A stretch of 20,554 bases of DNA, taken from the IMG/VR virus record IMGVR_UViG_2541047172_000030. One strand, written 5' to 3'. The position numbers were made by a program, and so were the translations under genes. Below are positions 11,691 to 15,955 of the stretch, in pieces (the first letter of the stretch is position 1; the number at the start of each line of letters is the position of its first letter). Below the pieces are notes generated by a model. The model searched no databases. It had not been told where the DNA came from and was given only the letters and a program-made list of their open reading frames with translations. Source of the DNA: a virus. Lineage: Duplodnaviria; Heunggongvirae; Uroviricota; Caudoviricetes.

Positions 11691-12772
11691 TGCCTTATCA
11701 GCCCTTACCACTGGCGCAACTGATCACACAGACACAACAGGATATCAGCCAGCGCCTGCCCGGTTCGCAGCCGGGCGTGAATGAAACCACCCTGAATGCC
11801 ATTGCGTATGCACTGGCGGGTCTGTCAGCACAGGAGCATGAACATCTGGCCTGGATCTCCCGGCAGATAATTCCGACAGAAGCTGATGAAGCCGAACTCC
11901 TGAAACACTGCGCATTCTGGGGTGTCATCCGTAAACCGGCTTCCCGCGCTGACGGACCGGTACAACTGATGCTGACCACGGATGCAGGGATCACGGAAGG
12001 CGTACTCCTTCAGCGAAGCGATGGGGTTGTGTACCGCATCACCGGCTCTGCGACCGGAAAAGCCGGAACACTGAATGTTAATGTGGAGGCGGAAAGTGCG
12101 GGGCGCGCTGGAAATACCCCGACCGGAACCCGCCTGTCCTTTATCACGCCACAGGCGGGCATCAACCAGACAGCCACGGTCACCGGCACGGGACTCACCG
12201 GTGGTGCGGATGTGGAAACGGTGCCGGAGTTGCTGTCCAGGCTGGTATTCCGGGTACAGAACCCGCCATCAGGGGGAACACAGTATGATTTTGAACGCTG
12301 GGCACGGGAAGTACCGGGCGTGACGCGGGCATGGTGTAAGCCTGAATGGCCTGAGGCGGGTAGTGTTGGTGTGACTTTTGTTCAGGATAATAACCCTGAC
12401 ATTTTCCCCGGAGAAGGTGATGTGAAGCGGGTGGCGGATTATATCCGCAGTCATGATGATCCGGCGACGGGCCAGCCCGTTGGTCAGCCACTTGGGCCGA
12501 CAATCAGCGTGTTTAAGCTGACCAATAAGCCGGTGGCGTTTGAGATCAGGATTGTACCCAAAACGCCGGAAAATCAGGCTGCCGTAAAACAGGCATTAAC
12601 AGACCTGCTTTATAACGAATCGCGGCCGGGTGGACTTGTATTGCCTTCATCATTCTGGCGGGCTGTTGCAGGGGTGAAAGGACTGGAGGATTTTGAAGTT
12701 CGCAGCCCGCTGAAGTCCGTGATGGCCGGAGATACAGAGTTGCTGACCGTGGGGGAAATCACATGGCTGTAA
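11687..12772 (+). CDS. Baseplate wedge protein (Mu gp47-like, baseplate J family)
   Basis: 361-aa ORF at the Mu gp47 position, translationally coupled to both neighbours. Confidence 0.7.
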   Translation: MMPYQPLPLAQLITQTQQDISQRLPGSQPGVNETTLNAIAYALAGLSAQEHEHLAWISRQIIPTEADEAELLKHCAFWGVIRKPASRADGPVQLMLTTDAGITEGVLLQRSDGVVYRITGSATGKAGTLNVNVEAESAGRAGNTPTGTRLSFITPQAGINQTATVTGTGLTGGADVETVPELLSRLVFRVQNPPSGGTQYDFERWAREVPGVTRAWCKPEWPEAGSVGVTFVQDNNPDIFPGEGDVKRVADYIRSHDDPATGQPVGQPLGPTISVFKLTNKPVAFEIRIVPKTPENQAAVKQALTDLLYNESRPGGLVLPSSFWRAVAGVKGLEDFEVRSPLKSVMAGDTELLTVGEITWL

Positions 12773-13323
12773 CCCTGACCCCGCATCAGCGCGCCCTGTT
12801 GCAGTTGCTGCCTGACGGGCTGGCATGGGATAAGCGGCCGTCATCCGTTCTTGCGGCTTTGTGCCTGGGCCTCAGTCATTCCACGGAGCGTGTTTCCTGG
12901 ACCGGTAACCAGATGCTGGCAGAACGTTTTCCTGATTCATCCCGTCTGCTGCTGGAAGACTGGGAGCGTTATCTGGGGTTACCGGAATGTGATATGACCG
13001 GCGCAACCATTCAGGAGCGTCAGCGTTATGCCGGGAATAAATACCGGATGAAACCCTCTCTTAACCGTGAATTTTATATCCGGTTTGCGGCAGAGTTTGG
13101 TTATGAAATAGATATTCAGCCATCACCGGATTCACAGTGGGTCAGTATTGTCACGATTAACAGTGAAACCGGCTACCGGAATATGAATGTGCTGGATGAT
13201 ATTCTCACGCCGCTGCGTATTTATGAAGGCGGTGCGCTGGAATGTATTCTGAACCGTTATAAGCCTGCATGGCAGACGTTTATTTACGTATATGCAAACA
13301 GTCACGAAGAGGAGAATATTTAA
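12763..13323 (+). CDS. Baseplate/tail protein (Mu gp48-like)
   Basis: 186-aa ORF between the wedge and tail-fibre genes; its stop overlaps the tail-fibre ATG (TAATG). Confidence 0.6.
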   Translation: MAVTLTPHQRALLQLLPDGLAWDKRPSSVLAALCLGLSHSTERVSWTGNQMLAERFPDSSRLLLEDWERYLGLPECDMTGATIQERQRYAGNKYRMKPSLNREFYIRFAAEFGYEIDIQPSPDSQWVSIVTINSETGYRNMNVLDDILTPLRIYEGGALECILNRYKPAWQTFIYVYANSHEEENI

Positions 13324-14234
13324 TGTTCCATGTTGATAATAATTCCGGCGTGGCGAATATGCCTGCGCTGGCACCGGCGCAGAGTAATACCACCACCTGG
13401 TTTACCGAAGGTGACGGACAAAAAGGTATCAGCTGGATTGGTCAGGACTGGCTGAATATTCTCCAGGCCGAACTGCTGAATATTCTGGCTGAAGCCAGTA
13501 TTCAGCCGGATAAGGCGCAGTTAAACCAGCTTACGCTGTCCATTAAAGCCATTATCGCTGCGAATGCCTTTTCCCGGAAAAACAACCTGAAAGAAATTGC
13601 TGATGCCGGTGCGGAAGCCCAGCGTCTTGCCCGTGGTTATCTTGGTCTTGGGGCGCTTGCCACAAAAAACAGTCTTGGTCCCGGTGACGTTAATGCTCTG
13701 GCGAAGGATCAGAACCTTGCCGACCTGGAGAATGCGGGAACCGCCCGTAATAATCTGGATGTTTACAGCAAAAGCGAAGGTGATAACCGTTACCTGCGCA
13801 GGGAGCAGAACGGCGCAGACATTCCGGATAAAGGCGCTTTTATCGATAACGTTGGTTTACGGGAAACGGTAAATAAGGCTGCTGATGCCCTGCCATCGGG
13901 TGGAACCGCCGTGGCAGCAAACAGACTCGCCACCCCAAGAAATATTAATGGTGTTCCTTTTGACGGAACGCTGGATATCAACATCACGTCAGGAATGACG
14001 CAGTCAACCGCAGATGGCCGGTATGTACAGAATGTTCAGCTTGGAGCACAGAGCTATCATTCACCCGGAGGCAATGAAATGTCATGGAATTACAGCGCAC
14101 CTTCCGGTTGTATGCTTTCCGGAATTAACGTGCAGGAAACCGGCTCCCGGTCTGCGGACAATATCGGTGGGGTCTATTATCGCCCGGTTCAGATTTATAT
14201 TAATAATGCCTGGAGAACGGTAAGTTCAGTGTAA
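13323..14234 (+). CDS. S: Tail fibre protein S: constant N-terminal part fused to the currently expressed variable C-terminal part
   Basis: In-frame ATG at 13323 with GAGGAG upstream, within ORF-track entry 13269-14234; 303 aa. A Gin-type crossover site lies inside the gene at 13840-13865. The C-terminal ~125 aa are paralogous to a promoterless minus-strand cassette at 14870-15228. Confidence 0.8.
   Translation: MFHVDNNSGVANMPALAPAQSNTTTWFTEGDGQKGISWIGQDWLNILQAELLNILAEASIQPDKAQLNQLTLSIKAIIAANAFSRKNNLKEIADAGAEAQRLARGYLGLGALATKNSLGPGDVNALAKDQNLADLENAGTARNNLDVYSKSEGDNRYLRREQNGADIPDKGAFIDNVGLRETVNKAADALPSGGTAVAANRLATPRNINGVPFDGTLDINITSGMTQSTADGRYVQNVQLGAQSYHSPGGNEMSWNYSAPSGCMLSGINVQETGSRSADNIGGVYYRPVQIYINNAWRTVSSV
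13840..13865. other. Left inversion crossover site (gix/hix-like 26-bp site) inside the tail fibre gene
   Basis: TTATCGATAACGTTGGTTTACGGGAA; its reverse complement TTCCCGTAAACC-AA-CGTTATCGATAA fits the remembered Hin/Gin/Cin/Pin consensus. Shares the core TCCCGTAAACC with the right site, in inverted orientation. Confidence 0.6.
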
Positions 14235-14244
14235 ACCACAGAAA

Positions 14245-14263
14245 AGGGTGCTGAATGCACCCT
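14245..14263. terminator. Stem-loop between convergent tail fibre and tfa genes (7-bp stem AGGGTGC/GCACCCT, 5-nt loop)
   Basis: Perfect inverted repeat in the 34-bp gap between the two convergent stop codons; flanking sequence is only weakly U/A-rich. Confidence 0.35.
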
Positions 14264-14268
14264 CTGAA

Positions 14269-14790
14269 TTATTCCGGTTTTTCCGGCCAGGGAATCGCCT
14301 GGTAATGCCCCTCACTGGCAATATCATTAAAGTGCATTTCTTTAAGCTGTCGGATATACGCCATCCAGCGCGTCAGCTGTAATTTATTTTCATCGCTAAT
14401 CATGTCCAGTTTTAATTCCGTTTTCCAGTCATCCACAGTTTCGTTGGCTTCCTGGAGCAGCGATGAGCGGCGCTTTTCAGCAACCGTCTTCCAGTTTACC
14501 GGCACCTTTGATATCAGGCCATCAGAAAACTGCCAGTTACCGTCAATATTCACACCTTCCGGCAGTTCGTCCACTTCAACAACAGTAAAACCTGCCGGAT
14601 ATAAAGCAGAGACATCTTCAGCAACAGAGCAGATAATACCCGTTACAGGCGAAATACAGAGTTTGTATTTCTTTGTGAAAAGCGGGATAGATTCATAAAA
14701 ATCCCTTCCGTCCTCACTCTGGAAATACTGAACATCCTCACCATAGGGTTTGTGTTCCGGGTAATATCGTTTTACGTTAATAAGCTCCAT
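14269..14790 (-). CDS. Tail fibre assembly protein (Tfa; Mu U / TfaE-like)
   Basis: ORF-track entry 14269-14901; start placed at the internal ATG (14790), which has an AAGGTGA site, giving 173 aa. C-terminal ISDENKLQLTRWMAY... resembles Tfa family proteins (recollection). Co-oriented with and downstream of the silent alternate cassette. Confidence 0.8.
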   Translation of the reverse strand: MELINVKRYYPEHKPYGEDVQYFQSEDGRDFYESIPLFTKKYKLCISPVTGIICSVAEDVSALYPAGFTVVEVDELPEGVNIDGNWQFSDGLISKVPVNWKTVAEKRRSSLLQEANETVDDWKTELKLDMISDENKLQLTRWMAYIRQLKEMHFNDIASEGHYQAIPWPEKPE

Positions 14791-14869
14791 TATTTCACCT
14801 TGTTTTTGTTGAAAAGACAAAATCATCATATATTTATTCAGATAATCTGTTTTTTGAACTACTGCACTT

Positions 14870-15228
14870 TTATGCGCTGGAAGCTGTTTTCCACGAACCA
14901 TCTATCAGAAACTGAACAGGTCGATAATATGCGGTTACCGTTGCATTACCATCACCAGCGACATCAAGCCCTGTAAGTACGCATCCGTCAGGAACCTCAA
15001 AAATATTATATTGCATTCCAATCGTTGACCTTGAACCTCTTCGAATGCTTTGAACATAACGTGAGTCAGCCACAGACTGCGTCATCCCCGATGTAATATT
15101 TATATCCTGCGTTCCGTCAAATGGGACACCATTAATATTTCTTGGAGTGGCGAGTTTATTCGCTGCAACAGCCGCTCCGTTCGATGGCAGGGCATTCGCG
15201 GCCCTGTTTACAGTATCCCGTAAACCGA
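14870..15228 (-). CDS. Promoterless alternate tail fibre C-terminal cassette (Sv-prime), expressed only after inversion
   Basis: Minus-strand frame open from the right crossover site to a stop at 14870-14872. The ORF track reports only the part from an internal Met (14870-15085). My translation (GLRDTVNRAANALPSNGAAVAANKLATPRNINGVPFDGTQDINITSGMTQSVADSRYVQ...) parallels the plus-strand tail fibre (GLRETVNKAADALPSGGTAVAANRLATPRNINGVPFDGTLDINITSGMTQSTADGRYVQ...) and diverges toward the C-terminus. Confidence 0.7.
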
Positions 15229-15241
15229 AGGTTTCAGGGAT
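15215..15241. other. Right inversion crossover site (gix-like), upstream of the invertase gene
   Basis: ATCCCGTAAACCGAAGGTTTCAGGGAT: imperfect palindrome with AAACC / GGTTT half-site cores, about 55 bp upstream of the invertase ATG. Confidence 0.6.
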
Positions 15242-15295
15242 GCCGTATATCTGCTTTAAAAGGCCTTTCCACCTCTTTTTAAGGAAGGTAAATAC

Positions 15296-15856
15296 ATGCT
15301 GATTGGCTATATACGCGTATCAACAAATGACCAGAACACAGGTTTACAAAGAAATGCGCTGGAATGTGCAGGATGTGAGCAGATTTTTGAAGATAAAATG
15401 AGTGGTAAAACGACACAGCGGCCGGGACTGAAGCGGGCACTGAAGAAACTAAAACCCGGTGACACACTGATGGTCTGGAAACTGGACAGGCTGGGGCGCA
15501 GTATGCGCCACCTTGTTGCGCTGACAGATGAATTACAGCAACAGGGGATAAATTTTCGTAGTCTTACTGACAACATTGATACGTCAACCCCCATGGGGCG
15601 CTTCTTTTTTCACATAATGGGTGCGCTGGCAGAAATGGAGCGTGAATTAATTGTCGAACGGACACGGGCTGGTCTTGCAGCTGCCCGTGAAAGGGGACGA
15701 ACCGGCGGCAGACCCCGTCGTCTCACGCAGGAACAATACGAGCAGGTCGGGCGTTTACTGGCCGGGGGTGTCAGTCGAAGACAGGTGGCACTTATTTTTG
15801 ATATCGGCCTTTCAACCCTTTATCGTTATTATCCTGCGAGCGTTTCGGAAAAATAA
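15296..15856 (+). CDS. gin: Serine recombinase DNA invertase (Gin/Pin/Cin/Hin family)
   Basis: 186-aa ORF starting MLIGYIRVSTNDQNTGLQRNALECAGCEQIFEDK..., with ...WKLDRLGRSM...GINFRSLTD...MGRFFFHIMGALAEMERELIVERT..., near-identical over long stretches to Gin/Pin as I recall them, including the catalytic Ser in RVSTNDQ. AAGGAAGG site 6 nt upstream. Confidence 0.95.
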   Translation: MLIGYIRVSTNDQNTGLQRNALECAGCEQIFEDKMSGKTTQRPGLKRALKKLKPGDTLMVWKLDRLGRSMRHLVALTDELQQQGINFRSLTDNIDTSTPMGRFFFHIMGALAEMERELIVERTRAGLAAARERGRTGGRPRRLTQEQYEQVGRLLAGGVSRRQVALIFDIGLSTLYRYYPASVSEK

Positions 15857-15955
15857 GACGCTCTCTTTGTTGGGCCTTTACTGAATTAACGCAAAATGGC
15901 GTTTATCGGTCTGTGGATATGATAATTCAGTTTATTCAGGAACAGGCTGATTATT

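Follow-up and report, generated by a model that had tools for sequence, protein, structure and literature searches.

A single tail fibre assembly gene, possibly shared by two fibre tips, in the invertible segment of an Sp18-type Mu-like prophage

How does a Mu-like phage provide a chaperone for its expressed fibre tip when the only tail fibre assembly gene (tfa) of its invertible segment points the other way? Phages P1 and e14 carry a convergent pair of tfa genes, one per tip. The first-pass annotation of the window, by which we mean the whole stretch of 20,554 nucleotides analyzed here, had contrasted the layout of this locus with two convergent tfa genes in Mu, P1 and e14, and for Mu the pair (U and U') is indeed seen in the Mu sequence. 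As explanations it had offered a chaperone-independent tip, a shared chaperone made from an internal promoter, or a deletion leaving one orientation defective. The genes and crossover sites concerned are the following.

13323-14234, plus strand: tail fibre gene S, 303 aa
13323-13853, plus strand: constant N-terminal part of S (Sc), 177 aa, directly 3' of the Mu gp48 homologue
13840-13865, no strand: left crossover site, TTATCGATAACG-TT-GGTTTACGGGAA, gix/hix-like, 26 bp, core at 13852-13853
13854-14234, plus strand: variable tip A (tipA, Sv), 126 codons, stop 14232-14234 included; fused to Sc, the expressed orientation
14269-14790, minus strand: tail fibre assembly gene tfa, 173 aa, Pfam Caudo_TAP E=1.9e-18, WP_000420351.1
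14870-15226, minus strand: silent variable tip B (tipB, Sv'), 118 codons plus stop, co-oriented with tfa
15215-15241, no strand: right crossover site, ATCCCGTAAACC-GAA-GGTTTCAGGGAT, 27 bp, with an extra core base, GAA at 15227-15229
15296-15856, plus strand: serine DNA invertase of the Gin/Hin type, Resolvase E=1.4e-51 plus HTH_7

The product of tfa scores 67.3 bits against Pfam Caudo_TAP (PF02413; cut-off 22.1), and the gene adjoins a fibre tip gene. It is homologous to Mu U/U', to the tail fibre assembly proteins of P2-like phages and of 186 and to Rac Tfa, and is 52.6% identical to the Tfa of Rac-SA53, whose gene sits after a tipA-like tip. This sole Caudo_TAP gene of the window ends 34 bp past the S stop (14234), with a hairpin in between. 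We searched for a second tfa with a Tfa HMM on all six-frame pieces of the 20.5-kb window and with tblastn (E up to 10) on positions 14200-15300. The HMM recovered the known gene only (E=2.7e-71), with no second tfa or remnant in the window, and the relaxed tblastn gave nothing on the plus strand of 14200-15300. These searches confirm that the invertible segment holds one tfa, co-oriented with the silent tipB, and that the plus-strand variable end is followed by the stop of this gene and by no tfa on its own strand. A plus-strand tfa missed because of a non-canonical start, which the first-pass annotation had itself considered, is absent from the window.

Positions 12700-16000 are 100% identical to chromosomes of E. 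coli O157:H7, O26, O103 and O145, and the window represents the Sp18 type of Mu-like prophage, which occurs widely among EHEC E. coli (O157, O26, O103, O145, O111). The annotated gene order is sheath, tube, tape measure, Mu gp43-48 homologues, tail fibre, tfa, invertase, DUF6645, com and mom. Sp18 DNA has been reported to be packaged and its host specificity was scored "atypical"; the sole remark on the invertible region in that paper is that it differs from Mu's (PMC2669165). Copies 100% identical to the window type are found in O157:H7, O26 and O145 genomes at three different insertion sites, namely a gene of the urease cluster (FRIK944) and two positions in portal genes of lambdoid prophages (O26 RM10386, O145 12E115); the copy in an O103 genome is also 100% identical. 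We compared the right flanks of these three (L001, L148, L149) with that of the window (20279-20554), which is a TonB-dependent receptor-like gene and differs from the three other sites. An identical prophage at different chromosomal sites fits active Mu-type transposition. Right after the invertase lies a gene for a 679-aa protein (15956-17995) with a sialate O-acetylesterase-like (SASA) domain and a C-terminal DUF6645. Every family member has this protein, and it may act as a second host-recognition protein of an enzymatic kind.

The constant part of the fibre is 46–48% identical to residues 1-198 of Mu/D108 S. The two tips are evidently homologous to each other: 72 of 126 aligned positions are identical between tipA and tipB, and both carry the C-terminal motif YYRPVQ...W.T.SS. 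TipA is furthermore 50–67% identical to tips of Rac-SA53, P2-like phages and many prophages, in all of which tfa comes directly next. In RefSeq, part of the silent tipB cassette (14870-15073, minus strand) is annotated as a free-standing 67-aa "tail fiber protein", and a "frameshifted hypothetical protein" is placed at about 15096-15282 on the plus strand, opposite tipB. Both entries are artefacts of annotating a promoterless cassette.

The invertible segment comprises 1,375 bp (about 1.4 kb), with the crossover junction mapped against the flipped genome FORC_044. A 185-nt inverted repeat (77% complementary) has the crossover sites at its outer ends and encodes the conserved start of both tips; the adjacent invertase is 75% identical to Mu Gin (tblastn). 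When the segment was flipped in silico, the new left junction aligned over its full length to 15 complete E. coli genomes, with 100% identity in three. These 15 genomes and several IMG/VR contigs have exactly this flipped arrangement, with Sc-tipB in frame; tipB is fused to Sc to give a 295-aa fibre, and tfa follows. In FORC_044, tfa starts 79 nt downstream of this Sc-tipB gene and tipA lies on the opposite strand, which agrees with the earlier expectation that the flipped orientation would yield a variable end plus tfa. Inversion thus occurs in nature.

Enzymes of the Hin/Gin type cut a 2-bp core, flanked in each site by two 12-bp half-sites, and partner sites must have matching cores. Canonical relatives of the window have such a core, TC on the Sc strand, matched at both sites (for example FORC_044, L002, L011, L012, L022 and L036). 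The cores of the window deviate from this family norm: the left one is TT, not TC, and the right half-sites are separated by 3 bp. In the metagenomic contig L013 both cores are TT, which suggests that the cores were converted step by step before 1 bp was inserted. The exact right site of the window occurs in 36 E. coli records and a version one base shorter in about 124. With a 3-bp right core and a non-canonical left core, the segment of the window is probably impaired in inversion and locked, or nearly so, in the tipA orientation. The first-pass annotation, which had read the anatomy correctly, had overlooked this abnormal right site. Overall the window orientation was found in 182 genomes and the flipped one in 15, a ratio that is only suggestive since the genomes are non-independent samples.

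We then asked whether the single tfa is particular to this copy. From the viral collection 57 loci were retrieved via the constant fibre part and 80 via Tfa, and annotated by tblastn; in the genome collection the constant fibre part recovered only 4 loci. The layout Sc-tipA, hairpin, convergent tfa, spacer, tipB on the tfa strand and invertase is shared by at least four allele combinations of the Sp18 family. Within this family the constant part is 94–100% identical, and there are two types of tipA and three of tipB. Between the main allele types Tfa is 61–64% and the tips about 55% identical, and dS of tfa between alleles is beyond saturation. For at least three combinations both orientations were found (window versus L002, L010 and L046; L026 versus L024 and L025; L085 versus L051 and L082). 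A related arrangement is present in a Mu-like prophage of Citrobacter braakii ATCC 51113 (L006 6001-9871) with three sites (about 6819, 8857 and 9223) and three alternative tips, where the only tfa of the segment points the same way as the silent cassettes and has a 69-nt spacer in front of it. Downstream of the invertase this prophage carries a further fibre-like gene with collagen repeats and a tfa-like match. A second tfa had also been proposed as something to look for in related prophages. None of the Sp18-family alleles has one; the classical convergent pair does occur in the more distant Mu-like relatives L041 and L042 and in two invertase-bearing prophage loci with a related tfa, L126 and L142, so both designs exist. 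Judged by this comparison, the single-tfa layout is a conserved design and not a one-off deletion, and in a literature search we found no earlier description of an invertible segment with a single tfa. Decaying copies were seen as well: both the invertase and the tipA cassette are frameshifted in L021 (7101-8083), as is tipB, upstream of tfa, in L055 (L087).

Tips resembling tipA are also found outside invertible segments. Rac-SA53 and 46 non-invertible prophage loci have a tipA-like tip whose end lies 5–17 nt before a tfa whose product is 54–58% identical to the Tfa of the window, and these tips share the C-terminal motif ADNIGGVYY...QIYING.WR.VS. Because tips of this kind elsewhere directly precede a tfa of the same family, tipA is probably a client of Tfa. 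We dropped covariation between the tips and the Tfa N-terminus as a test. The N-terminal 60 residues of Tfa are similar in all alleles while the tips reassort freely, which fits a universal chaperone; the test is confounded by physical linkage.

Several family members have lost most of tipB, the right crossover site and the invertase. They comprise five IMG/VR contigs (L016, L027, L028, L033 and L039, the last at 6532-7800) and, with the same class of deletion, four complete E. coli genomes: CI5 (L147 19470-23287), M1, M3 and M18. The five contigs, when compared, share one deletion junction. Of tipB, the derivatives retain some 35 nt at the 3' end. The remaining order is S-tipA, convergent tfa and then directly the DUF6645 gene. 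The tfa gene is intact in all of these derivatives, with dS of 0.11–0.43 and dN/dS of 0.10–0.23 among them, an argument for purifying selection that is weakened if recombination with invertible alleles imported tfa into the frozen derivatives. The late region of the CI5 prophage contains no pseudogenes. Since tipA is the sole tip left and tfa has been kept, the derivatives argue that Tfa acts on tipA and would be expressed even though it is permanently convergent to S. Together with the altered cores of the window, the switch appears to have been frozen in both known ways, by a core indel and by deletion of tipB and invertase, in the seemingly tfa-less tipA orientation. The identical copies at several sites and the packaging of Sp18 DNA mentioned above point in the same direction: the tipA orientation is apparently competent, and a phage with an apparently fixed tipA orientation has kept moving.

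If tfa is expressed in this orientation, the sequence around it should be informative. The elements bordering the gene are listed below.

14243-14265, no strand: GC-rich hairpin between the convergent stops, T-run on the tfa strand, -14.7 to -16.5 kcal/mol
14791-14869, minus strand: AT-rich spacer from the tipB stop to the tfa start, 79 nt, with Shine-Dalgarno AAGGTG; candidate promoter region
14825-14830, minus strand: candidate -10 hexamer TATGAT, 34 nt 5' of the tfa ATG, predicted start near 14818

Spacers between tipB and tfa are 51, 79 or 120 nt long in the Sp18 family and 69 nt in Citrobacter. In contrast, the gap in conventional tip-tfa pairs (n=46) is only 5–17 nt, so that a spacer 5' of tfa is specific to the single-tfa design. 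Four spacer types that cannot be aligned with each other all have a -10-like hexamer 34–35 nt 5' of the ATG: TATGAT in the window (type I), TATTAT in type II, AATAAT in type III and TATAAT in Citrobacter. This positional coincidence was matched in 1 of 20,000 shuffles, a figure that overstates independence, as types I and III may share ancestry and AT-rich spacers readily give -10-like hexamers. Among spacers of type II, only 0–2 positions vary within the 45 nt closest to the tfa ATG, with dS of tfa at 0.1–0.4. From the spacers and their hexamers we infer that tfa has its own promoter there.

A consensus sigma-70 scan of 13200-16000 returned no minus-strand promoter in the tfa gap, and no -35 match lies 5' of the candidate -10 in the window spacer; the best match by eye in the gap is 8/12 (AAAACA-17-TATGAT). 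According to PMC2582627, Mu late promoters have a -10 but no typical -35 hexamer and need the activator C. Mu Pmom carries TTAT-N6-ATAA. No convincing motif of the kind expected for a box of a Mu C-type activator was common to the region upstream of com/mom in the window and the tfa spacers. We did note a near-palindrome, CAGATAATCTG, at 14839-14849 between the candidate -10 and the would-be -35 position, and a related string, AAAACAGATT(T)AT, in the type III spacer. The hairpin between the convergent stops is terminator-like on the minus strand. Its plus-strand side has no clear T-run, and read-through from S would therefore run antisense across tfa. We also asked whether such a hairpin signals a design with two promoters, and rejected the idea because Mu has a hairpin between U and U' too.

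We lean towards the interpretation that one Tfa is shared by the two homologous tips and is expressed from a promoter of its own, whichever way the segment lies. A Gin-like invertase would flip the 1,375-bp segment and so join the constant part of S to tipA or to tipB, and the single Tfa would serve both, including tipA as a presumed client. For this, tfa would form a self-contained unit of the 79-nt spacer with its -10-like element and Shine-Dalgarno sequence, the ORF and the hairpin terminator, and as such could be made both downstream of tipB and convergent to S-tipA. Its promoter would probably depend on a late activator. Of the explanations offered earlier it is hence the shared chaperone from an internal promoter that the comparison favours, with the promoter in the AT-rich gap deduced from the -10-like hexamer. 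More tentative, and in our estimate just short of an even chance, is the complete proposition that tfa is an autonomous, late-activated unit within invertible DNA, lies head-on to S in the favoured orientation and acts as a universal chaperone, and that the switch was frozen at least twice in the orientation that looks chaperone-less.

All other explanations are disfavoured by the retention of tfa in the tipA-only derivatives and by the repeated freezing in the tipA orientation. TipA might fold without a phage chaperone, so that tfa would serve tipB only and be silent in the window orientation. No allele has a co-oriented tfa after tipA, a consensus promoter is lacking 5' of tfa, and the tipA orientation dominates among the genomes and hence works somehow. 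Yet homologous tips elsewhere always have an adjacent tfa of the same family (46 of 46 conventional tipA homologues), and the derivatives without tipB keep an intact tfa, at the dN/dS given above and under apparent purifying selection, together with a conserved spacer, which is hard to explain if Tfa served tipB alone. We therefore regard a chaperone-independent tip as unlikely. Supply of tipA's Tfa in trans, by related tfa genes of other resident prophages or by the few sister copies whose segment inverts in the course of replicative transposition, also seems improbable to us. That phage Tfa proteins can complement one another is known from early work, and Tfa proteins 54–58% identical to that of the window are common in the prophage contigs recovered with it as query, both of which would make such a supply conceivable. 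It would, however, make the host range hostage to the prophage content of the lysogen, and it leaves unexplained why invertase-less derivatives, which cannot flip, have kept a convergent tfa of their own and its spacer.

Finally, the single tfa might be a degenerate state left by the loss of a second, plus-strand tfa, with fibre-defective particles produced in the window orientation, as in the earlier suggestion of a deletion. Two tfa genes in Mu, the convergent pairs in L041, L042, L126 and L142 and the decay of some family copies through frameshifts (L021, L055) would be in line with such a loss. Against it, the window holds no remnant of a second tfa, and the layout is conserved across alleles whose tfa dS exceeds saturation. 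Moreover, both known freezings fix the very orientation supposed to be defective, and identical copies occupy different insertion sites in several serotypes of a prophage type whose DNA is packaged (PMC2669165). We consider this reading highly improbable.

Should the shared Tfa prove true, host-range switches of the Mu type need no duplicated chaperone: one orientation-independent Tfa serves swappable tips, and the invertible module is halved in size. For the annotation of prophage host range this would mean that a "missing" tfa is no evidence of a defect, and it would bear on the engineering of phage or tailocin fibres whose tips can be exchanged while one chaperone serves them all.

Among known systems the closest are the G segment of Mu with Gin, and grouped with it the C segment of P1 with Cin and the P segment of e14 with Pin. 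Like the window, Mu has the order gp47, gp48 and S, a crossover inside S, com and mom downstream, gix-like inverted sites of 26 bp (27 bp for the right site of the window) and an adjacent serine invertase. The two differ in that the segment measures 3 kb in Mu and 1.4 kb in the window, the variable tips have more than 300 aa in Mu and about 120 aa in the window, and convergent U and U' stand against one tfa. The gap between S and U is 2 nt in Mu, whereas 51–120 nt separate tip and tfa in the Sp18 family, and the 3-bp core of the right site in the window copy is unlike Mu. The tip-tfa pairs of Rac-SA53 and P2-like phages have a tip of the same fold family as tipA with tfa 2–17 nt downstream on the same strand, without inversion. 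Min of plasmid p15B is a multi-site inversion region, and the Citrobacter prophage with its three sites and three tips resembles it in that cassettes are shuffled rather than just flipped; the window, unlike such regions, has two sites only. The single-tfa switch is thus a variant of the well-known theme of the Mu G segment, and a tfa of its own for each tip is a feature of the classical examples, not a requirement of the recombination system.
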